A stretch of 64,000 bases of DNA from an uncultured Gammaproteobacteria bacterium (GTDB lineage Bacteria; Pseudomonadota; Gammaproteobacteria; JAURND01), in assembly GCA_963714975.1 (NCBI GenBank), contig CAVQQD010000002.1:704001-768000 (forward strand), in the 5' to 3' direction. Made by a program: the position numbers and the translations under genes. The notes under the pieces are model-generated. The model was not told where the DNA came from. It saw nothing but the letters and a program-made list of their open reading frames with translations, and did no database searches. The stretch's first letter is position 1. Each line of letters begins with the position of its first letter. Shown one piece after another: positions 3,827-13,403 of this stretch.

Positions 3827-4932
3827 AGACCTTATTAGTTCAGGCGGTAAGACCTTATTCTATCTATATCGCACCCGGCTTGCTAGACTCCTCTTTTTTA
3901 GTTGAGAAAATCCGCCCGCTAGGGCATCGGTTTGTAATCATTAGTGATTCTCAAGTCGCCGAATTGCTAGGCGAGCCTTGGTTAATTTTCTTATGTTCCC
4001 AGGGTTTGACTGTGGGTCTCATCAAATTTCCTAGTGGAGAAGCGTTCAAAACTCGCCAGACTAAGCAGCAACTTGAGGATGAATTATTTTTATTAAGCTG
4101 CCAGCGTGATACGGTCATTTTAGCCCTGGGAGGCGGGGTGGTTACGGATTTAGCTGGTTTTGTTGCCGCTACTTATTATCGTGGTATACCGGTTGTATAT
4201 ATCCCGACCAGCTTATTGGCCATGGTCGATGCGAGCATTGGCGGGAAAACCGCAGTCGACACTCCTTATGGTAAAAATTTAATTGGGGCATTTAGTTCAC
4301 CACGAGACGTATTTATCGATCCCAGCTTATTGCAAAGCTTACCAGAGCGAGAATTACGCAATGGCGCAGTTGAAATGATTAAGCACGCATTGATTGCTGA
4401 TCCGGATTTGTTTTTGCAATTACAACAACAACGCGAAGCCTTCTTCGCCTGTGACCCATTGATTCTCCAAGATTTAATTGAACGAAATTGCCAAATAAAA
4501 CGCCATGTTGTAGAGATAGATGAAATGGAGCAAGGTTTGCGGCAATTATTAAATTTTGGGCACACGATAGGACATGCCATAGAAAATCTAGATCAGTACC
4601 AAATACAGCATGGCGAAGCCGTTGCGATCGGCCTTATTTTAGAGAGTTTTCTTTCTCACCGGCGTGGTTATTTGTCCGCGGAAAATTTAAAAAAAATTCA
4701 AGAGATTATTTTTGCTTATGGAGTTAATTTGCAAACTACTGCATTGCAAGATGAGAACGCGTTTTGGCAGGCTTTAACTTATGATAAAAAAGCCAAAGCA
4801 GGGCAGGTACAAGTCGTAATGCTCGATGACATTGGTAAACCTCATCATGAACAAAATCAGGTTACCGTCAGCATTTCTCGAGAGGAAATAGCTGTTATGT
4901 TGCGAGAATCTGCTAGTTTATTGAATCATTAA
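3823..4932 (+). CDS. aroB: 3-dehydroquinate synthase
   Basis: GGGVVTDLAGF, DASIGGKT, LNFGHTIGHA; ATG at 3823 overlaps the aroC stop (ATGA) and is preferred to the GTG at 3772. Confidence 0.96.
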   Translation: MKTLLVQAVRPYSIYIAPGLLDSSFLVEKIRPLGHRFVIISDSQVAELLGEPWLIFLCSQGLTVGLIKFPSGEAFKTRQTKQQLEDELFLLSCQRDTVILALGGGVVTDLAGFVAATYYRGIPVVYIPTSLLAMVDASIGGKTAVDTPYGKNLIGAFSSPRDVFIDPSLLQSLPERELRNGAVEMIKHALIADPDLFLQLQQQREAFFACDPLILQDLIERNCQIKRHVVEIDEMEQGLRQLLNFGHTIGHAIENLDQYQIQHGEAVAIGLILESFLSHRRGYLSAENLKKIQEIIFAYGVNLQTTALQDENAFWQALTYDKKAKAGQVQVVMLDDIGKPHHEQNQVTVSISREEIAVMLRESASLLNH

Positions 4933-4996
4933 AAATCACATGATCCATATTAAAAATGGTTCTATGTAGAATCGAGTGGGTAGATTCTACATAGAA

Positions 4997-5029
4997 CCTA
5001 ATTTTCCCTTAATCTAGCTCTGGTACAAT
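4997..5029 (+). promoter_or_regulatory. PmrA-like box plus -10 element upstream of the ankyrin gene
   Basis: cctaatttt-cc-cttaatcta-N7-tacaat resembles the Legionella/Coxiella cTTAAtatT-N2-cTTAAtatT consensus. Confidence 0.5.
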
Positions 5030-5061
5030 CTGGCTTGTACCATGAACAGAGGGTGTAAAAA

Positions 5062-6750
5062 ATGAGCACAGCAAGGTCTGAAAAATTATTGAAAGCTATC
5101 AGGCAAGATGATGCAACCGCGGTTAGACAGATAATTGCCTCTGCAGAAGAAAATATTAATCAACTATTTCCCATAGATAATTGGAGAGAAATGGTCCCAA
5201 TAACCTATGCAATCACCTTGGGGAAAACACAGGCTTTAAGTGCTTTATTAGAAGCAAAACATTTACAAGTAAACCAAATAAACCTCGAAGGAGAAGACCC
5301 TCCCTTATTTCTTGCAATGAAAAACGACCAGTTAGAGTGCTTCAAAATTTTATTAGCCGACCCGAGGGTTGATATCAATGCAACTGGCACCATGTACAAA
5401 TACACTCCATTGATTGCGAGTGTTTCAACAAAAAAAAAACAATTCTTCCAGGCTTTACTTGACTCAAAAAGAGCGAGCGAACTTGATGTAAACAAACAAT
5501 GTCAAGACACGGTAGGCTCAGCAATTGGTTGGGCTGCCTTTAGAGCTGACTTATTTTATCTGCAAAAATTGTTGCGCCACCCTAAAATAATAATACAGGA
5601 TGATCAGAATCATATTAAAGATAAACTTGATAATGAGAAGAATCTCTCCAAAGCTGAAGATTTGAGATTGCTTGAAGAAGCCGTTGCACGCGGGCGTTTG
5701 AATGCAAATACAAATGAAAATCCCCAGCCCCCTAGTGAAAATAAAGTTACTGCACTTCAGCCTATCAGCGACGAAACAAGGCCTAACAGATTACTTCAAG
5801 CAATAAATGATGATAACGAAGAGGAGATTAGGCGGATAATTACCTCAAAGGAAGAGAATATTAATAAACGATTTACTATTGATTGTGGGGACGTCATGGT
5901 TCCTTTAACCTATGCAGTTACTAAGGGCAAAGCAAAGGCTTTAAAAGCTTTATTAGAGGCAAAGGATATAGAGTTAAACCCCAAAGAAGTGTCTGGCCTC
6001 CCTTTATTTCTCGCAATGAAAAACGACCAGTTAGAGTGCTTCAAAATTTTATTAGCCGACCCGAGGGTTGATATTAATGCAACTGACACTATGTACGCCA
6101 TTACTCCCTTGATTGACAGTGTTTATAAGAAAAAAGAACTATTCTTTAAGGCCTTACTAGAATCAAAAAGAAAAATAGATGTAAACAAATCTTCTGAACT
6201 ATCCACAGCACTTGAATGTGCTTGCAAGCCTACTGAACTATTTTATCTGCAAGCGTTGTTGCGCCTTCCTGAGATAACAGTACCTGATAAATCCCTCTAT
6301 GGTTCAGATATTCAAGTTGCTGCGCACATTAGATCCAAGCTTGATACAGCGCAAAATCTCTCAAGGACTGATGATTTGAGATTTTTAGACCAAGCCATTG
6401 CATGTGGAAATCCTGACCAAGGCAAATATAAGCGTAGATCAGGCATTTTTGTAGCTGTAGCAATTCCTTTAATTTATACCATTGGAGTTATCGGAATCCC
6501 TTTGGGATTTACGCGCAAACCTCAGGAGACCTATGAAGCTTTTGAAAAATTACATTTAGACGGTTTAATAGATAACATTTCGGAGTCGACAAAGGCCCAA
6601 GTAATGGCTGGGATGATAGGAGGGGTGCTTTTAATTGCATTGTTAGTTACTGCAGGTATTTTAATTAAGAACAATCCACCACCCGCAAAAGAATCTAAGG
6701 ATGATGGTAACCATTCACCACAATTAAATGGCAGCCAAGCCTTACAATGA
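5062..6750 (+). CDS. Ankyrin-repeat protein with internal duplication and two C-terminal TM segments (candidate secreted effector)
   Basis: Two copies of PLFLAMKNDQLECFKILLADPRVDINAT; TPL..A-type ankyrin motifs; two hydrophobic stretches near the C-terminus. Confidence 0.85.
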   Translation: MSTARSEKLLKAIRQDDATAVRQIIASAEENINQLFPIDNWREMVPITYAITLGKTQALSALLEAKHLQVNQINLEGEDPPLFLAMKNDQLECFKILLADPRVDINATGTMYKYTPLIASVSTKKKQFFQALLDSKRASELDVNKQCQDTVGSAIGWAAFRADLFYLQKLLRHPKIIIQDDQNHIKDKLDNEKNLSKAEDLRLLEEAVARGRLNANTNENPQPPSENKVTALQPISDETRPNRLLQAINDDNEEEIRRIITSKEENINKRFTIDCGDVMVPLTYAVTKGKAKALKALLEAKDIELNPKEVSGLPLFLAMKNDQLECFKILLADPRVDINATDTMYAITPLIDSVYKKKELFFKALLESKRKIDVNKSSELSTALECACKPTELFYLQALLRLPEITVPDKSLYGSDIQVAAHIRSKLDTAQNLSRTDDLRFLDQAIACGNPDQGKYKRRSGIFVAVAIPLIYTIGVIGIPLGFTRKPQETYEAFEKLHLDGLIDNISESTKAQVMAGMIGGVLLIALLVTAGILIKNNPPPAKESKDDGNHSPQLNGSQALQ

Positions 6751-6849: not shown

Positions 6850-6953
6850 CAGATGTACTCCGATTTATGGATCAGGATTATGTCCCTTTCACTAACAATC
6901 AAGGTGAAAATGACATTCGTATGACCAAAGTTCAGCAAAAAATATCAGGATGT
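6850..6953 (+). mobile_element. IS66-family transposase fragment
   Basis: DVLRFMDQDYVPFTNNQGENDIRMTKVQQKISGC matches the recalled IS66 TnpC motif VPFxNNxxExDIRMxKVxQKISGC. Confidence 0.75.
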
Positions 6954-7008
6954 TTAGGCGCGCATTACTATCTTGCTGAGTTTCTAATACAGTTAATTGC
7001 GCTAGCAG
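6953..7008 (-). pseudogene. 56-bp fragment of an Rpn-family gene
   Basis: Matches 10419-10474 at 53 of 56 nt by eye. Confidence 0.8.
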
Positions 7009-7101
7009 GAAAGCAGGTTAGACTAGAAGCAGCAGAGGTAGGATTTTGGCGGAGCAGCCGAAATGTTGCTCTGCTGCTTCGTGCATAATCCTAGGTTTTT
7101 G

Positions 7102-7188
7102 GTGAGCTCAAACTGAACTGAAGTCCCGTCGCCCGCCTACGGGGTCCTGCCGCGCGAGCAACGGGACTTCAGTTCAGTTTGAGCTCAC
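7102..7188. repeat. MITE-like element with perfect 28-bp inverted arms
   Basis: gtgagctcaaactgaactgaagtcccgt (7102-7129) / acgggacttcagttcagtttgagctcac (7161-7188). Confidence 0.9.
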
Positions 7189-7294
7189 GAATCTCCTAAC
7201 CTTATGTAGTAGAAAATTCGCAGCTATATACTAGACTTACACGGAATAGGTTAAGTTATATGTGGAAATTTGTGAATTTTATGGGAGGTGTGTT

Positions 7295-7432
7295 ATGAGA
7301 ATTGAGAAAAAACCTGTTAAAATTTTAGATCCAGATTATGGTCGAAAGTGGACTAATGGAAATGGACCAGGAAAAATTGATGAAAAAGAATATTTGTCGT
7401 TGTGTGAAAAGGTAAAAAAATTGGAAAAATGA
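7295..7432 (+). CDS. 45-aa small ORF, candidate RiPP precursor (MRIEKKPVKILDPDYGRKWTNGNGPGKIDEKEYLSLCEKVKKLEK)
   Basis: GGAGGTG RBS at 7284-7290, ATG at 7295, TGA at 7430-7432; immediately upstream of two co-oriented YcaO genes; below the ORF-track size cutoff. Confidence 0.75.
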   Translation: MRIEKKPVKILDPDYGRKWTNGNGPGKIDEKEYLSLCEKVKKLEK

Positions 7433-7468
7433 TCCGCAGGGTCAAATTAAATGCATTAACTAAATATT

Positions 7469-7493
7469 AAGCTGTCATATGACATGGCAGCTT
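7469..7493 (+). terminator. Intercistronic stem-loop after the small ORF
   Basis: aagctgtcat-atgac-atggcagctt (10-bp stem, one G-U) followed by a weak U tract. Confidence 0.55.
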
Positions 7494-7533
7494 GATTTCG
7501 TTCGTTATATAATCCGGCGGGCTTATTCCTATC

Positions 7534-8739
7534 ATGATAAATTTCGAGCGTTCCTTCTCTCCCGATAATGCAATACACTATTTTGATAATAAAGAACATA
7601 ATTTAGAGATTGATTTAATTCGTTTTGATGGTAAATACCCAGTATATAAATGTTATTTGACCGATAATAATAATTCTCATACCTATATTGGTGGCGGTGG
7701 AGGATTGGGGTCTGCGAGCCAGGCTGCTGCACTTTTTGAATCTGCACAACATTATTTTTCGACACGTGGGTTACAAGATAATCTAAAAGACATCCATTTT
7801 TTTCCTATCGTTGAAGCCCCAGAATTGGGATATCTGTCAAAAACTGAATTTTTACCGGGTAATTTATGCAACTTCCCAGATCAAGAGCTTCCTTGGTTAC
7901 AATATAAAAGTTACACGGATGAACAAATCATCTATTATCCAGTAACATTGACCGAAGTTAGGTTGCACCATTTTCCTAAATTTAAAGATTATATGGATTT
8001 TAATTGGATGAGCCATGATACTGGCATGGCCATTGGCAGTGATTTTATGGAGGCAAGTATACATGGCATCAACGAATGGATTGAACGCGAATCATATGGT
8101 TTTTTATTATTGAAGTTATTTATTAATAAATCGAATAAAAAAATTCGTTTGCTAGATCATTTCACTATCCCAGAACATTTATTTCAACTTGTGAAATATA
8201 TTGAGCAAAATTTTAGCGATGATCTATTGATCGTTGATATAACTAGCGATATAAATGTACCTGCTTTTCTTGTCTCATTTACCAAACAACCAGCAATTTT
8301 CCAACCAAGGGGAATGGCTGCCTCATTATCCAAATCTTGTGCCTTGGAACGTGCTATCTATGAAGCTTTGCAGGCACGCATGCTTTACAATGAGAAATCT
8401 AAAGAATCGGAGTTTCATTGCATTAAGTCTTTAAAAAATACTCCTTTATTGTTAAAAGCTGCAGAATGTAACCTGACAGATTTAATCAATAACGACGAAT
8501 ATGTGTCTATTAATTTTTCGCAAGTTGCTGACTATTCTTCTTTGACCGACTTATCTGAACAGCTCAATAAACTGCATAATTTATTAAGCAGTAAAGGTCT
8601 TAAGGCTTTTTATCATTACTATGCATTAACTGATCACCTGGTATGTTTAGGGGTTATTATTCCAGGGCTAGATCAGTTTTTTATGGTGAGATGTGGTAGG
8701 TTTATTATGCCAAATTCTCGAGGATTGCAACTTTTGTAA
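7534..8739 (+). CDS. YcaO-family protein (degenerate first ATP-binding motif)
   Basis: TGMAIGSDFMEASIHGINEWIERES, VDITSDINVPAF, ALERAIYEALQ, IIPGLD; paralogous to the next gene. Confidence 0.85.
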   Translation: MINFERSFSPDNAIHYFDNKEHNLEIDLIRFDGKYPVYKCYLTDNNNSHTYIGGGGGLGSASQAAALFESAQHYFSTRGLQDNLKDIHFFPIVEAPELGYLSKTEFLPGNLCNFPDQELPWLQYKSYTDEQIIYYPVTLTEVRLHHFPKFKDYMDFNWMSHDTGMAIGSDFMEASIHGINEWIERESYGFLLLKLFINKSNKKIRLLDHFTIPEHLFQLVKYIEQNFSDDLLIVDITSDINVPAFLVSFTKQPAIFQPRGMAASLSKSCALERAIYEALQARMLYNEKSKESEFHCIKSLKNTPLLLKAAECNLTDLINNDEYVSINFSQVADYSSLTDLSEQLNKLHNLLSSKGLKAFYHYYALTDHLVCLGVIIPGLDQFFMVRCGRFIMPNSRGLQLL

Positions 8740-8758
8740 AAATAAAGGATAAATATTT

Positions 8759-10015
8759 ATGGATGAGAACTTTATCAATTGTGAACGCATTGTTCCTTCT
8801 ATCCAAGCTTTGAAGATTGTCATGACGGAATTAAATCATCTGGGTTTAGATTTGGAGTATAAATGTGCGGGAAATACTCTGCAAACATATCATTGCAAAT
8901 TGATTGATCCAGTGAATAATTGGATTTTTTATGGTTGTGGTAAGGGTATCGGCATCCAATCGAAGGTCAGTGCTACATTTGAGGCTCTGGAACATTATTA
9001 TTGTTATAAACTTGCTACCAATAATAAACATGATTCTTTAAAATTTATGAGTTATGCAGAGGTGTTGGGTAAAGAGTCAAATCTACCGGTATCAAATTTT
9101 TTACCTAAACGCATGATCGCAGAGGAATTTAGCAACATCACTCTGCCTTGGGTTGAATTTGTAACTTTTCAAAATAACAACGAATTTTATTATCCGTTAT
9201 TCTTAATCGAGCCCCACTATCTTAAATTTGGCGATAAATTTAATGAAGATTATTATGATTACCAGGATTTATGCTCATTAGCCTGTGACTCGGGGACAGC
9301 TTCAGGTAGTTCATTTATTGAGGCAGCGCTGCATGGACTAAATGAATGTGTTGAGCGTGATGCAACTTCAATTTTTTTAGTAGAAGCTTTCCTTAAACAA
9401 AACCCTATTCATTTAATTGATAAACTAACTTTACCTGAGAACTTGCTTCAATATGTCAAATTAATTGAGGAAGAATTTGATGATGAATTGGCAGTTGTAG
9501 ATATTACCTCTGATAGCGGTATCCCAACCTTTTGTGTAGCGTTTACTAGACAAAATGTATTGATACAACCCAAGGGATTTGGTACTTCATTAAATAAAAA
9601 TTATGCCTTGGAGCGAGCACTATTAGAATCATTACAGCCTTTGCACTTACGTAATGCAAATTTAGTGCAAATGGAAAAAATTATTTTACAAAATTTTGTG
9701 TCATATCCTAAATTACAGGCTGCAGCTATTGCAGATATAGCACAGATGGTTACGGATAAGAATTTTATTACCACTTCTTTTCAAAAATTAGCGGATCCTA
9801 TCCAAAATTATTCAGACATTTCCAGTCAATTAGTAGAAATTATCCGTAGAATAAACGCGATTGGATTAACCCCACATTACATGTATTTAACTGCAGCAGA
9901 AAATGAAGTGACTTGCTTAAAACTTATAGTTCCTGGGATGGATAACTTCTTTTTAGTTAGCGATGGAAAGTTAGTGTTGCCTGGTAAACGTAGTCTTAAA
10001 GAGAAGGATTTTTAG
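8759..10015 (+). CDS. YcaO-family protein (stand-alone, intact motifs)
   Basis: GCGKG..SATFEALEHY, SGTASGSSFIEAALHGLNECVERDA, DITSDSGIPTF, ALERALLE, IVPGMD. Confidence 0.92.
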   Translation: MDENFINCERIVPSIQALKIVMTELNHLGLDLEYKCAGNTLQTYHCKLIDPVNNWIFYGCGKGIGIQSKVSATFEALEHYYCYKLATNNKHDSLKFMSYAEVLGKESNLPVSNFLPKRMIAEEFSNITLPWVEFVTFQNNNEFYYPLFLIEPHYLKFGDKFNEDYYDYQDLCSLACDSGTASGSSFIEAALHGLNECVERDATSIFLVEAFLKQNPIHLIDKLTLPENLLQYVKLIEEEFDDELAVVDITSDSGIPTFCVAFTRQNVLIQPKGFGTSLNKNYALERALLESLQPLHLRNANLVQMEKIILQNFVSYPKLQAAAIADIAQMVTDKNFITTSFQKLADPIQNYSDISSQLVEIIRRINAIGLTPHYMYLTAAENEVTCLKLIVPGMDNFFLVSDGKLVLPGKRSLKEKDF

Positions 10016-10032: not shown

Positions 10033-10098
10033 TGACTCAACAACCGATCTAATCAGCAAACACCTCATCTAAGGTTTTAGCATCAAAAATACGATCAG
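10033..10098 (+). repeat. 66-bp direct repeat, copy 1 (copy 2 at 11724-11789)
   Basis: tgactcaacaaccgat(c/t)taatcagcaaacacctcatctaaggttttagcatc..acgatcag at both sites. Confidence 0.9.
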
Positions 10099-10261
10099 CC
10101 CATAATAGGAGCGTATCGGCATCAGCTTGCATAACCTGGGTTAGGTAAGTGGAGGGTATCGAGTGAAAGCGACGCTGCAGCAGGCGAATTAATATAGTAG
10201 ATTCACCTTGTTGAATCCCCTCTTGTCTGCCAATACGTTGTGGGGTAGTAATATAATTCAT
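10049..10261 (-). CDS. Putative RpnS-like 70-aa protein from an internal start
   Basis: GAGGAGG-aaaaacgt-ATG internal RBS; frame intact to the Rpn stop. Confidence 0.55.
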   Translation of the reverse strand: MNYITTPQRIGRQEGIQQGESTILIRLLQRRFHSIPSTYLTQVMQADADTLLLWADRIFDAKTLDEVFAD

Positions 10262-10704
10262 ACGTTTTTCCTCCTCAATATGTTTTATGGCCTGATTGTA
10301 TATTGGCTCGAGTTCTTTGGGAAGGGTAATCAGCCAATCAAGCAAAGTAAATAACCGAATAATATCTTGTTTACTATAGCCTTTCTCATATAATTGGCGT
10401 GTAAGAGCCGTCTTAGCTTTTAGGCGTGCTTTACTATCTTGCTGAGTTTCTAATACAGTTAATTGCCCTAGCAGCACTATGGCAAAGCGATTGTTGGCAG
10501 CTTCAAGTTCTTGCCGACGGGTTTGATATGAACTCTTTATCCAAGGATTCGTAGTCTTTAAGACCAATCAATTTGTGTTGCAATATGGGGAAAACAAAAC
10601 TCCATAAAATCGCGAAAATAAAGGCCCAAGCTTTGTTTCCAGGGACTGTCATAATCGGGGCGAGTATCTTGTTTTTCAATAGGTGTAATTGTCTCGGTAT
10701 TCAT
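10049..10704 (-). pseudogene. Rpn-family (PD-(D/E)XK, putative transposase/nuclease) gene, broken, with large internal deletion
   Basis: N-terminus from 10704 reads MNTE..PDYDSPWK..YFRDF..FPHI..IDWS then stops; C-terminal part LDWLITLP..EEEKRM..GRQEGIQQGE..LDEVF lies in another frame. Confidence 0.8.
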
Positions 10705-10906: not shown

Positions 10907-11743
10907 ATGACGTTTTTGATTTTAGCCTATCGTTGGTTGTTTCCAAACTGCTTTTTACATTTTGCCCCTGGTTGTCGTTTTCACCTTACCTTTTTGCAAT
11001 TGCGTAATGCAGCGATTAGTAATTTGTTAACGCGCAAGGATCCTTATTGGAAAGAGCTTCCGCTGCACTTATCTGCACGATTGGCATTAGTCCGCAGAAT
11101 GGACAAATTAAAAGCGAGCCTCCAGGAAGATAAAAAAGTAGTAAGATCTTTATACCCTTTGGTGTCATACATTACTGATTTTTCTGGAATTACTAATTTT
11201 TTGCCTAAAGAAGGCAAGTTAACAAAAAACGTTTTGGATGCGGATAGCCGGGCATTAGAGCGAACAGTAACATTGTATGAACGATTTTGCTCATCTACCT
11301 CTGAAGTCAAAGAGGCAAAGGACACAGATCATAACCCCACTCTCGAAATTAAAGGCACAAAGCCTCGAGACCTTGAGCTCGTCACAGATAATTCCGGCTC
11401 TTGTTGCAATATTAAGAAGATATTAAATTTTACTGCGCAAGGCATTGTTACATTACATGTATCCTCAGCTGTGACAATTGCTGTAACGGAATTAGGAAGC
11501 GTGGTAAAGGAATCCATTGGTAGAGGTTTTTTTGCCACAGTTACTAAATTCAATGACTTAATGTTGCAATCGAACTTTACTAAGGGAATAAGCGGGGCTT
11601 ATTTTGGATTAGCAGTTATATTATTTTTACTATGGCTTGCAAATAACTATCGTAAGAATAATTATATTCAAAAGGCACAGCATAACGACTACGAACAAAG
11701 ACTGCCTACAGCTAATTCTGCTATGACTCAACAACCGATTTAA
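10907..11743 (+). CDS. Hypothetical membrane protein (effector-like)
   Basis: Long ORF; AGGAG RBS 8 nt before ATG at 10907; C-terminal hydrophobic segment; no recognised family. Confidence 0.6.
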   Translation: MTFLILAYRWLFPNCFLHFAPGCRFHLTFLQLRNAAISNLLTRKDPYWKELPLHLSARLALVRRMDKLKASLQEDKKVVRSLYPLVSYITDFSGITNFLPKEGKLTKNVLDADSRALERTVTLYERFCSSTSEVKEAKDTDHNPTLEIKGTKPRDLELVTDNSGSCCNIKKILNFTAQGIVTLHVSSAVTIAVTELGSVVKESIGRGFFATVTKFNDLMLQSNFTKGISGAYFGLAVILFLLWLANNYRKNNYIQKAQHNDYEQRLPTANSAMTQQPI

Positions 11744-11789
11744 TCAGCAAACACCTCATCTAAGGTTTTAGCATCCAGAAAACGATCAG
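11724..11789 (+). repeat. 66-bp direct repeat, copy 2 (Rpn 3' end remnant)
   Basis: Near-identical to 10033-10098. Confidence 0.9.
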
Positions 11790-11879
11790 TCTGTACTAAA
11801 GCCTTTCAATGCGGTCTTGCATTTGCTATAAACTTGTTAAATAATGTGTTCCAAAATGCTGAAAGCTATCTTCAAACAT

Positions 11880-11954
11880 CCTCATCCGGCCTGCGGCCAC
11901 CTTCTCCCTAATCCCCTTCCCCTTTTTAAAGGGGAAGGGGATTAGGGAGAAGGG
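11880..11954. repeat. Palindromic repeat, CCCTCATCCGGCC family
   Basis: ctcatccggcctgcggccaccttctccctaatccccttcccc..ggggaaggggattagggagaagg. Confidence 0.8.
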
Positions 11955-11975: not shown

Positions 11976-13403
11976 ATGCGTGTTGCAAGTATTATTGCTA
12001 ATAATTATGTCACTGCTCAGCAGCAAATAGCTGAAGCGGTCCCCTATGCTGACGTGATTGAATTACGTTTAGATTATTGGTCTAGTTTAGAGATTAGTGA
12101 AGTAAAAGAATTACGCGATTCCCTCACTTTACCAGTATTATTTACCTTGCGCACGAAAAGCCAAGGGGGTCATTGCACGCTTGAAGAATCGCAGCGTTTA
12201 TTGTTGCTTGAGCAATTGGCAAGTTTATTACCAGATTATATGGATTTGGAATTTGACGTTCCGGTTGAGTTTGCGCTTGCTTTGCGAGAAGAGTTTCCAC
12301 AAATTCAATTGATTCGCTCCTACCATGATTTTACTCAGACCCCAAATAATTTAGAAGCTTTGCTGCAAAAATTATATCATCCAGCCTTTCATTTCATTAA
12401 GATCGCAGTGTTTGCGCACACTATTCTCGACACGCTGCGTTTATTGCTATTTATCCAGCAAAATAGCCAAAAATATTCACTCATTGGCATTGCTATGGGC
12501 GAGTACGGCGAAGCCAGCCGCATTCTGGCACCAATATTGGGTAGTCGATTTACTTATGGCAGTATCAATACGGAGCAAGCAGCAGCGCCAGGGCAACTTA
12601 GTTTGGCAGAATTAACTAACACCTATCGGGTGCAGTTATTAAATCGGAGCACTGCTATTTATGCTTTGCTGGGGGACCCAGTAGCTTCAAGTCGCGGACC
12701 GATCTGGCATAATGCTTATTTTGCTAGTCATGATAAAAATGCAGTGTACATTCGCCTGCGTATTCCACCGGCTGATTTAGCGGCAGCAGTTGGGTATTTA
12801 CGACAATTACCCTTTTTTGGTTTTAGTCTCACCATGCCGCTAAAAGAAGATATTTGTCCGCATTTGGATCAGATCGATGAAGCGGATAAAGCCATTGGGG
12901 CGATTAATTCTATTGTAGTTACCGATGGAAAATGGCTTGGATTTAATACTGACGGTAAGGGAGCTATTGCTGCCATTGCTCAGCAGACAAGTGTCGCGAA
13001 TAAAACCGTGGTTATTTTAGGCGCGGGTGGGTCAGCAAAAGCGATTGCATTTGAGGCCGCAAAGCAAGGTGCTAAGCTTATTGTATTAAATCGCACTCCC
13101 GAGAAAGCAGAGCAATTGGCGCGATGGCTCAAAGCTAGAGGAGGTGGATTTGATCAACGCGATGGGTTATTAACAGAGGGTTATGATGTACTGATCAATA
13201 CCTTACCTCCTGCGGTCAATAATCGTGTCGAAGATTTTCCCTTACAAGCCACGCATTTTTTGCCAGGCGCAGTGGTAATGGATATTGTTTACAACCAAGG
13301 TGACACAGCCTTTCTCAAGTTAGCTAAATTAGCTGGCTGTCGCATTGTCGACGGTAATGAGATGTTTGTCCAACAGGCACTTTTACAACAGCAACGATGG
13401 TAA
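11976..13403 (+). CDS. aroE: Bifunctional type I 3-dehydroquinate dehydratase / shikimate dehydrogenase (AroDE)
   Basis: N-terminal IELRLD, SYHDF, MGEYG, APGQ; C-terminal TMPLK, NTDG, GAGGSA. Confidence 0.92.
   Translation: MRVASIIANNYVTAQQQIAEAVPYADVIELRLDYWSSLEISEVKELRDSLTLPVLFTLRTKSQGGHCTLEESQRLLLLEQLASLLPDYMDLEFDVPVEFALALREEFPQIQLIRSYHDFTQTPNNLEALLQKLYHPAFHFIKIAVFAHTILDTLRLLLFIQQNSQKYSLIGIAMGEYGEASRILAPILGSRFTYGSINTEQAAAPGQLSLAELTNTYRVQLLNRSTAIYALLGDPVASSRGPIWHNAYFASHDKNAVYIRLRIPPADLAAAVGYLRQLPFFGFSLTMPLKEDICPHLDQIDEADKAIGAINSIVVTDGKWLGFNTDGKGAIAAIAQQTSVANKTVVILGAGGSAKAIAFEAAKQGAKLIVLNRTPEKAEQLARWLKARGGGFDQRDGLLTEGYDVLINTLPPAVNNRVEDFPLQATHFLPGAVVMDIVYNQGDTAFLKLAKLAGCRIVDGNEMFVQQALLQQQRW

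Follow-up and report, generated by a model that had tools for sequence, protein, structure and literature searches.

The question raised by this locus is what is encoded by a 45-residue open reading frame (ORF) and the two tandem YcaO genes behind it, which lie in a 64,000-nucleotide stretch of DNA (hereafter the window; contig CAVQQD010000002.1, positions 704,001 to 768,000) from an uncultured gammaproteobacterium. A first-pass annotation of the window, made from the letters and their translations, had proposed a new minimal system for a RiPP (a peptide that the ribosome makes and that is modified after translation), with the short ORF as precursor. We find that the trio composed of the peptide gene and the genes for YcaO1 and YcaO2 (Y1 and Y2 below) is real, conserved and horizontally mobile across several bacterial lineages, and that it is probably a self-contained minimal RiPP-type system making an undescribed modified peptide.

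All elements of the locus are oriented on the forward strand. A Shine-Dalgarno-like GGGAGG (7284–7289), read directly from the sequence, precedes the ATG of the small ORF (7295–7432) by 6 nt; the ORF itself, a candidate precursor gene, is defined by its reading frame and by its homologues. It is followed by a hairpin with a 13-bp stem and a U-rich stretch (7466–7496), by Y1, a divergent paralogue of 401 aa (7534–8739), and by Y2, a conserved paralogue of 418 aa (8759–10015). This arrangement had been correctly described in the first-pass annotation, as had the AT-richness of the segment relative to the aro genes (GC content 0.34–0.35 over positions 7501–10000 vs 0.38–0.49) and the makeup of its surroundings: Pfam and NCBIfam searches of the neighbours placed no gene for an E1-like protein, a RiPP recognition element (RRE), TfuA, a dehydrogenase, a radical S-adenosylmethionine (SAM) enzyme, a protease or an exporter/transporter adjacent to the trio.

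The peptide, MRIEKKPVKILDPDYGRKWTNGNGPGKIDEKEYLSLCEKVKKLEK, matches nothing in Pfam or NCBIfam, and its reality as a gene product is best judged from homologous loci. Indeed, a small ORF of 43–50 codons is situated directly upstream of the YcaO pair in all seven distinct loci of the close family for which upstream DNA is available (the window, L100, L102, L009/L103, which are identical, L108, L112 and L010), bearing out the expectation that such an ORF belongs to the pair. The seven peptides align with each other, and the order peptide-Y1-Y2 is the same in all seven loci. When the seven-peptide profile was compared with 5.8 billion proteins, 22 peptides of this family were found among 32 candidates, all at E ≤ 2.4e-12, a count that takes in the window's own peptide and copies from the loci examined; none of them bears a name other than “hypothetical protein” or contains a Pfam domain. 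Each of the 22 has the motif D-x-D-[YF]-G-R and, after exactly four residues, G-x-G-x-G, with fixed spacing throughout. In the seven-peptide alignment ten columns are invariant (M1, D12, D14, G16, R17, G22, G24, G26, Y33 and L36), all of them kept in the window peptide, and no Cys, Ser or Thr is among them. The N-terminal 11 or so residues are variable, with R, K, Q, N, G, D, E, V, M or S found at position 2. Four pairs of loci give a ratio of nonsynonymous to synonymous substitution rates (dN/dS) of 0.16–0.25, at close to saturated synonymous sites, and the small ORF has therefore been kept as a protein-coding gene. AlphaFold2, run on the seven-row alignment, left residues 1–29 without regular structure and predicted a helix over residues 30–44, at a mean predicted local distance difference test score (pLDDT) of 68 that rises to 84 in the 31–40 block.

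The 101-nt spacer between the peptide gene and Y1, taken as a 116-nt intergenic RNA, folds with a free energy of -28.2 kcal/mol (z = -2.61), and none of 200 shuffled sequences is as stable. A hairpin with a common stem sequence, plus a UUUUGUUU tail, is also found in L100, the closest relative. The hairpin at 7466–7496 is likely to be a leaky terminator, or attenuator, that would hold peptide transcripts in excess of enzyme transcripts. An attenuator is described as a common feature 3′ of the precursor gene in RiPP operons, and one is predicted between btmD and btmE of the bottromycin cluster (PMC7113386).

Y1 and Y2 score 102.7 and 130 bits, respectively, against the YcaO family PF02624 (Pfam cut-off 25.7) and are 34% identical to each other, and neither falls in a named NCBIfam subfamily. 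The azoline model TIGR03604 yields 67.5 bits with Y1 and 79.3 bits with Y2 (cut-off 219.25), the McrA-glycine thioamidation model TIGR03266 yields 39.5 and 64.2 bits (cut-off 365), and NF040716, which describes the E. coli type with its architecture of about 570 residues, yields 24 bits with Y2 and no match with Y1 (cut-off 700); the generic kinase-domain model TIGR00702 gives Y2 76.0 bits (cut-off 75.65). The C-terminal sequences, ...GRFIMPNSRGLQLL and ...GKLVLPGKRSLKEKDF, both end in FFxVxxGxxxxPxxR and have no PxPxP, in agreement with the first-pass annotation; a C-terminal PxPxP is reported as a feature of azoline cyclodehydratases (PMC12338566). A literature search of the main texts of papers turned up none on this peptide family or on the YcaO pair. 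With subfamily scores far below cut-off, a peptide free of database matches and no paper, the cluster maps onto no characterised family.

The positions of the ExxE, ExxER and RxxxE(xxQ) motifs of YcaO proteins bind nucleotide (ATP) and Mg. In Y2 these motifs read GCGKGxGxQSKVSAxFEAxEHY, NExxERD and YALERALLExLQP, and none of the key positions varies in 28 of 28 sequences. Each of the eight Y1 sequences departs from the canonical set at one motif position or more. The second Glu of the first motif is replaced by Gln (E78Q) in the window, L100, L108, L112 and L010. At R286, in the third motif, L102, L103 and L101 have Gln and L108, L112 and L010 have Lys; at E196, where the second motif has its first Glu, L103 has Asp and L101 has Gln. 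The E202A variant of the E. coli YcaO is described as dead (PMC13063428). Y2 is presumed to be the catalytic subunit.

The history of the pair can be read from a FastTree phylogeny of 104 YcaO sequences (402 columns after trimming), for which the TfuA-linked YcaO of the same genome served as root and L051 contributed BtmE and BtmF. It omits the Y1 of L101, which is truncated, the partial matches L078, L082, L083 and L086, and loci with no ORF of more than 330 aa across the match. Y1 and Y2 each form a clade (support 0.989 and 0.958, respectively), and the two clades are sisters (0.967). Within them the same three sub-clades recur with support of 0.999–1.0: the window with L100; L102 with L103 (and with L101 for Y2); and L108 with L112 and L010. 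The matching sub-trees indicate a single early duplication, after which the pair has been co-inherited. The Y1 stop overlaps the Y2 start in five of the seven loci. Natural YcaO-YcaO fusions also occur in distant relatives from high-GC organisms, namely P0084 (796 aa) and P0105 (841 aa), which are 24–28% identical to Y1 and Y2.

The AlphaFold2 model of Y2 has the YcaO fold (pLDDT 90.2; predicted template modelling score, pTM, 0.91), and 41 of the 42 PDB chains recovered with it at E ≤ 0.001 are YcaO enzymes. The best solved neighbour is the M. jannaschii YcaO 6peu, at a template modelling score (TM) of 0.68–0.75; LynD, the M. kandleri enzyme, the YcaO of E. coli and MusD come next. In sequence comparisons, the solved structures come no nearer than E = 1e-7. 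Prediction of a complex of Y1, Y2 and the peptide, with the peptide as partner, gave a median score of 0.41, and the control in which Y2 was replaced gave 0.51, so that the prediction counts neither for nor against such a complex.

How widely the trio is distributed was judged from three collections. Comparison of Y2 with the 5.8 billion proteins yielded 60 relatives, the best of them without names (71%, 56% and 50% identity) and the next named in the source as Coxiella burnetii (41%) and three Legionella species (41–42%), all of these being matches to YcaO proteins only. A scan of the genome collection with a broad alignment gave at least two close-family loci (L009 and L010) among the 80 examined, the rest being mostly actinomycete YcaOs. 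From the metagenomes, 47 loci were recovered with an alignment built on the N-terminal motif specific to the family, and among these the tandem pair with upstream DNA was found in L100, L102, L103 (identical to L009), L108 and L112. In L101 the pair is present on a contig that begins inside Y1, and a Legionella sp. protein matches its Y2 at 86.6% identity. By their labels, the other carriers include this Legionella-like contig, the proteins named as Coxiella burnetii and Legionella, two gammaproteobacterial metagenome-assembled genomes (MAGs) and a MAG labelled Actinomycetota, with flanks of 62% GC. Among the sequencing runs listed, none of RNA matched, and two soil-metagenome DNA runs gave small shares (0.08 and 0.05), from which no conclusion is drawn.

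Apart from the YcaOs and the peptide, an all-against-all comparison of neighbouring ORFs, with Pfam, revealed no gene conserved across the eight loci, and the description of the system as minimal accordingly stands. A LysR-type regulator is common to L103 and L101, and ordinary flanking genes are common to the close relatives L112 and L010; Pfam matches of ten neighbours are to unrelated families (methyltransferase, Sel1-repeat, DNA ligase, creatininase, GroES/GroEL, BON and DUF1543). In L009/L103, from a gammaproteobacterial MAG, the cassette lies between nitrile-hydratase-like genes and a DUF1543 gene (4008–5312 and 8071–8589 of L103); the former, read by eye from translations, comprise an alpha subunit, a short beta-like ORF and an accessory-like ORF, and the start of the latter overlaps the Y2 stop. 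In L010 and L112, from the MAG labelled Actinomycetota, the cassette (39–49% GC) is embedded in DNA of 62–64% GC beside a P450-like gene, a setting that represents either a recent transfer to a high-GC host or a chimeric contig.

Base composition agrees with mobility: cassette GC is below flank GC in six of the eight loci, namely the window (0.342 vs 0.429 in the rest of the window), L103 (0.362 vs 0.418), L108 (0.283 vs 0.331), L102 (0.403 vs 0.448), L112 (0.487 vs 0.640) and L010 (0.395 vs 0.624), and does not differ from it in L100 (0.359 vs 0.360) and L101 (0.336 vs 0.343). L100 has the nearest cassette, with Y1 65% and Y2 71% identical to those of the window. There is no match between its flanks and those of the window cassette, and two L100 flanking proteins match only weakly (24–29%) elsewhere in the genome. 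The family of the window's genome has eight other species genomes in the collection. A search of 40 relatives did not recover the YcaO pair; two of the 40 gave weak matches of 28–29% identity, comparable to that of the genome's third YcaO (30%). In the order to which the genome of L009 belongs, 2 of 86 genomes gave a match at E ≤ 1e-30.

The cassette is present in the window's genome in a single copy and is surrounded by repeated DNA. It is bracketed by a pair of 56-nt direct repeats, 95% identical, of which the left copy (6953–7008, forward strand) derives from the multi-copy DUF4351 gene family as a fragment and the right copy (10419–10474, forward strand) lies within a DUF4351 gene (10049–10567, minus strand). 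This family has 15 blastn matches in all, spread over roughly six other regions on contigs C2 and C3. With its fragments at 6953–7008 and 11724–11798, it flanks the cassette on either side and recurs ahead of aroDE, a pattern suggestive of recombination between DUF4351 copies. Just 5′ of the small ORF, at 7084–7206, there is an imperfect palindrome with 53-nt arms that are 83% complementary; its pieces have 26 blastn matches in the genome, and it therefore looks like a dispersed repeat element. IS66 debris also lies beside the cassette. The plasmid collection yielded only seven distant matches (26–29% identity; Bacillus and Streptomyces), and thus provides no evidence for a plasmid-borne cassette.

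Comparison with known YcaO systems shows that the trio most resembles the bottromycin locus btmD-btmE-btmF, represented in our set by L051 from Streptomyces scabiei, in which the precursor gene (4527–4661) is followed by two YcaO ORFs. In both cases a short precursor precedes two stand-alone YcaO genes with no E1-like or RRE partner, an attenuator is predicted 3′ of the precursor gene, and the C-terminal part of the peptide is acidic and helical in BtmD and is predicted to be so in the 45-residue peptide. Y1 and Y2 align with BtmF over nearly its full length at 26% identity (120 and 124 bits; E = 5e-34 and 3e-35, respectively), compared with about 25 bits for BtmE and about 50 bits for the genome's TfuA-linked YcaO, and share with it a C-terminal G-x-x-V/I-L/M-P-x-x-R and the lack of PxPxP. 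BtmF is credited with macroamidine formation, and thiazoline formation is implied for BtmE (PMC5103208). The differences, however, are substantial: there is no BtmE-type paralogue here, as Y1 and Y2 arose by duplication inside their own clade; the 22 peptides have neither a Met-Gly-Pro N-terminal core nor a conserved Cys, and compatibility is limited to the follower-like part, with its predicted helix; the btm cluster's radical SAM methyltransferases, amidohydrolase, aminopeptidase, P450 and exporter are absent near the trio here and at the related loci; and the hosts are mostly low-GC Gammaproteobacteria rather than streptomycetes. The description of the genes as a bottromycin-like stand-alone YcaO pair thus holds for gene order and BtmF homology, and does not extend to a BtmE+BtmF pair or to a Met-Gly N-terminus.

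Short upstream ORFs with a Met-Gly start are found in other members of the broader clade, at the single-YcaO loci L106/L107/L111, L104/L105, L113, L120 and L012 and at many actinomycete loci among L013–L085. They end in an acidic helix-like tail, as in a recurring Nonomuraea example that starts with MGNVVDY, and look like a large set of uncharacterised bottromycin-style precursors with the core first and the follower last. The 22 cassette peptides do not have this type of start.

The streptamidine system provides another point of comparison, having a stand-alone YcaO (AmiD), a precursor (AmiA) with no Cys/Ser/Thr-rich core and an amidine product, and including a subset of the family with two YcaO genes (PMC8442711). 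Its precursors are described as containing motif A or B, with a common ALV, and its usual neighbours as AmiB, a hydrolase, a dehydrogenase and transporters, and the family is reported solely from Actinobacteria and Firmicutes (PMC8442711). In contrast, motifs A and B are absent from the 22 peptides, as are the AmiB, hydrolase, dehydrogenase and transporter neighbours from the trio. With the azoline cyclodehydratases of the SagD/McbD/LynD type, Y1 and Y2 have in common the YcaO fold and the nucleotide-site motifs, in Y1 with the changes given above; they differ in their low TIGR03604 scores (67 and 79 vs 219 bits) and in having no PxPxP tail, and no E1-like/ThiF or RRE partner and no dehydrogenase occurs here or in seven related loci, nor does the peptide offer a conserved Cys, Ser or Thr. 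The tiarin/trifolitoxin clusters of Legionella were considered and set aside as an unrelated system with TfxB/C dehydrogenases and an RQGC core.

On balance, what can be read from the sequences favours the peptide as the substrate of the YcaO pair. According to this model, the 45-residue product would be recognized through its C-terminal helix (residues ~30–44), acting as a follower-like element, and modified within the disordered invariant DxD[YF]GR-x4-GxGxG segment. Y1 and Y2 would act together, probably as a heteromer, in which Y2, with its full nucleotide/Mg motif set, would activate a backbone amide using ATP, and Y1 would serve mainly as a partner or substrate-holding subunit, or else carry out a second, altered step. 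Intramolecular attack by a nitrogen nucleophile would then produce an amidine-type ring (-18 Da) rather than an azoline. Such a ring appears the most likely outcome in view of the lack of a conserved Cys, Ser or Thr in the peptide and of the place of BtmF as nearest characterised enzyme, and we put it forward tentatively, as one possible product.

Several observations weigh against this model. The node uniting the family with BtmF has a support of 0.458 and the identity is only 26%, so that BtmF is the nearest characterised relative and not a close one; by structure, the best neighbour of Y2 is an archaeal YcaO that forms thioamides. In a typical RiPP the leader is conserved and the core hypervariable, and the pattern of this peptide family differs in that nearly the whole peptide is conserved, save the N-terminus and one position between the glycines. 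The N-terminus is variable in length and sequence and would mostly retain its Met, which makes a bottromycin-style N-terminal amidine unlikely, and none of the side-chain nucleophiles of known YcaO chemistry is conserved in the peptide. Finally, no conserved protease, exporter or immunity gene is present across the loci, a lack that is unusual for secreted antibiotic RiPPs.

The alternative that survives best keeps the cassette and the substrate and changes the reaction to backbone thioamidation (+16 Da) in or next to the GxGxG loop, with sulfur supplied by host metabolism and no TfuA in the cassette; we regard it as unlikely. The closest solved structures to the Y2 model are stand-alone thioamide-forming YcaOs from M. 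jannaschii (6peu/6pe3) and M. kandleri (6ci7), with TM of 0.65–0.75, and these, like the E. coli enzyme, are single-domain proteins comparable in size to Y2 and need no E1-like partner. The proteins on which they act are described as carrying a glycine-rich loop near the modified residue; the E. coli YcaO, in particular, is reported to thioamidate uL16 at Met82, beside Gly83 and Gly85, without TfuA (PMC13063428). The uL16 loop of the window's genome, RQGKGKGPVEYW, bears a motif-level likeness to the GxGxGx[IV][DE]..Y of the peptides, which is, however, not significant, as 103 to 438 of 500 shuffles reach the observed score with the seven peptides. Moreover, the substrates of the methanogen and E. 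coli enzymes are large folded proteins encoded elsewhere and not an adjacent 45-residue ORF, and theirs is a single YcaO, whereas here the pair is conserved. The 64 bits of Y2 on TIGR03266 may count as a trace of kinship and are far under the cut-off of 365, as are its 24 bits on NF040716 relative to 700; the nearest characterised relative by sequence is the amidine-forming BtmF, and no sulfur-transfer gene travels with the cassette.

The genome does contain one TfuA (C3:472783–473139), its only one, which lies beside a third, unrelated YcaO giving about 50 bits with Y1 and Y2, and no TfuA accompanies the cassette in any locus. This third YcaO (G000:C3:472003–474586; L001, L147) is 382 aa long from its first Met, scores 244.6 bits against PF02624 and adjoins a protein of 430 aa that has a TfuA domain (164.9 bits) at its N-terminal end. 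The two constitute a separate thioamide-type YcaO-TfuA pair, with weak relatives in 2 of 40 related genomes.

Two further readings are, in our estimation, improbable to a similar degree. In one, the small protein would be an adaptor, regulator or decoy, and the true target either a cellular protein (a loop of a ribosomal protein, for instance) or one of the host. Some YcaOs do act on proteins, as described for uL16 (PMC13063428) and as the NCBIfam model name implies for McrA; the peptide is conserved over most of its length, as a small protein partner would be, maturation and export genes are absent, and the likeness to the uL16 loop, at the motif level, points the same way. Against this, the E. 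coli-type model NF040716 scores 0 with Y1 and 24 bits with Y2, the precursor-first order with an attenuator-like hairpin is a RiPP pattern, hosts that range from 28% to 62% GC argue against dependence on a single host target, and residues 1–29 are predicted to be disordered, as in linear YcaO substrates.

In the other, the heteropair would perform a reaction new to YcaOs on the D-[Y/F]-G-R/GxGxG segment, and the product would act inside the producer or host cell in a cofactor-like or signalling capacity, not as an antibiotic, the cassette being passed among intracellular or amoeba-associated Gammaproteobacteria, including those of the Legionella and Coxiella type. The backbone nitrogen of the Gly that follows the aromatic residue may attack to form an imidazolinone, as in X-Tyr-Gly chromophores, or the invariant Arg side chain may attack to form a cyclic amidine. 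An intracellular role would be in keeping with a product that is conserved rather than hypervariable and with the lack of export, protease and immunity genes. That the cassette now lacks a function in this genome, and is carried along by mobile DNA in a silent or decaying state, is highly improbable: its patchwork of IS66 and DUF4351 remnants and repeated palindrome, its atypical GC and its absence from the 40 relatives would fit such a fate, but all three ORFs are intact, with ribosome-binding sites and start codons, Y2 retains every invariant residue of its family and the peptide all ten invariant columns, and the family is under purifying selection.

The genes upstream of the cassette are tyrA-aroA-aroK-aroC-aroB, an ankyrin-repeat gene and an IS66 transposase remnant, and those downstream encode the DUF4351 protein, a 287-aa protein of no family, AroDE, a 568-aa protein of no family and QueF. 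In relatives, AroDE is about 50% identical and aroB is not found within 1.5 kb of aroDE. A chlamydial origin of the genome, suggested at first by the name of the model matched by the fused aroDE, is rejected: its uL16 resembles that of E. coli, and the best AroC relatives with names come from MAGs of uncultured Gammaproteobacteria (66–68% identity), besides one from a MAG labelled Chlamydiota (69%). The ankyrin-repeat protein (562 aa, 5062–6750) has a hydrophobic C-terminal end and contains an internal duplication of about 700 bp, with 5302–5472 matching 6001–6171 at 85% and more repeat pairs spaced 687–714 apart. A perfect 26-nt inverted repeat with a 2-nt gap (11900–11953), unique in the genome, is located 5′ of aroDE, which starts at 11976.

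YcaO-dependent RiPP-type modification is already known; what is new here is the precursor family, the hetero-paralogue enzyme pair and the lack of accessory genes. Should the cassette prove active, no YcaO-based system for modifying peptides so far would be smaller, as it consists of one precursor and two paralogous enzymes in about 2.8 kb. Since the precursor has no Pfam or NCBIfam match and none of the usual nucleophiles, it offers a clean system for probing a lone BtmF-like YcaO, and the combination of an intact and a degenerate paralogue is a natural test of whether a pseudo-enzyme partner can replace an E1-like or RRE protein. The occurrence of the mobile unit in Legionella-like, Coxiella and other small-genome gammaproteobacteria, with a high-GC actinobacterial MAG as an outlier, suggests a portable function, possibly tied to an intracellular lifestyle.

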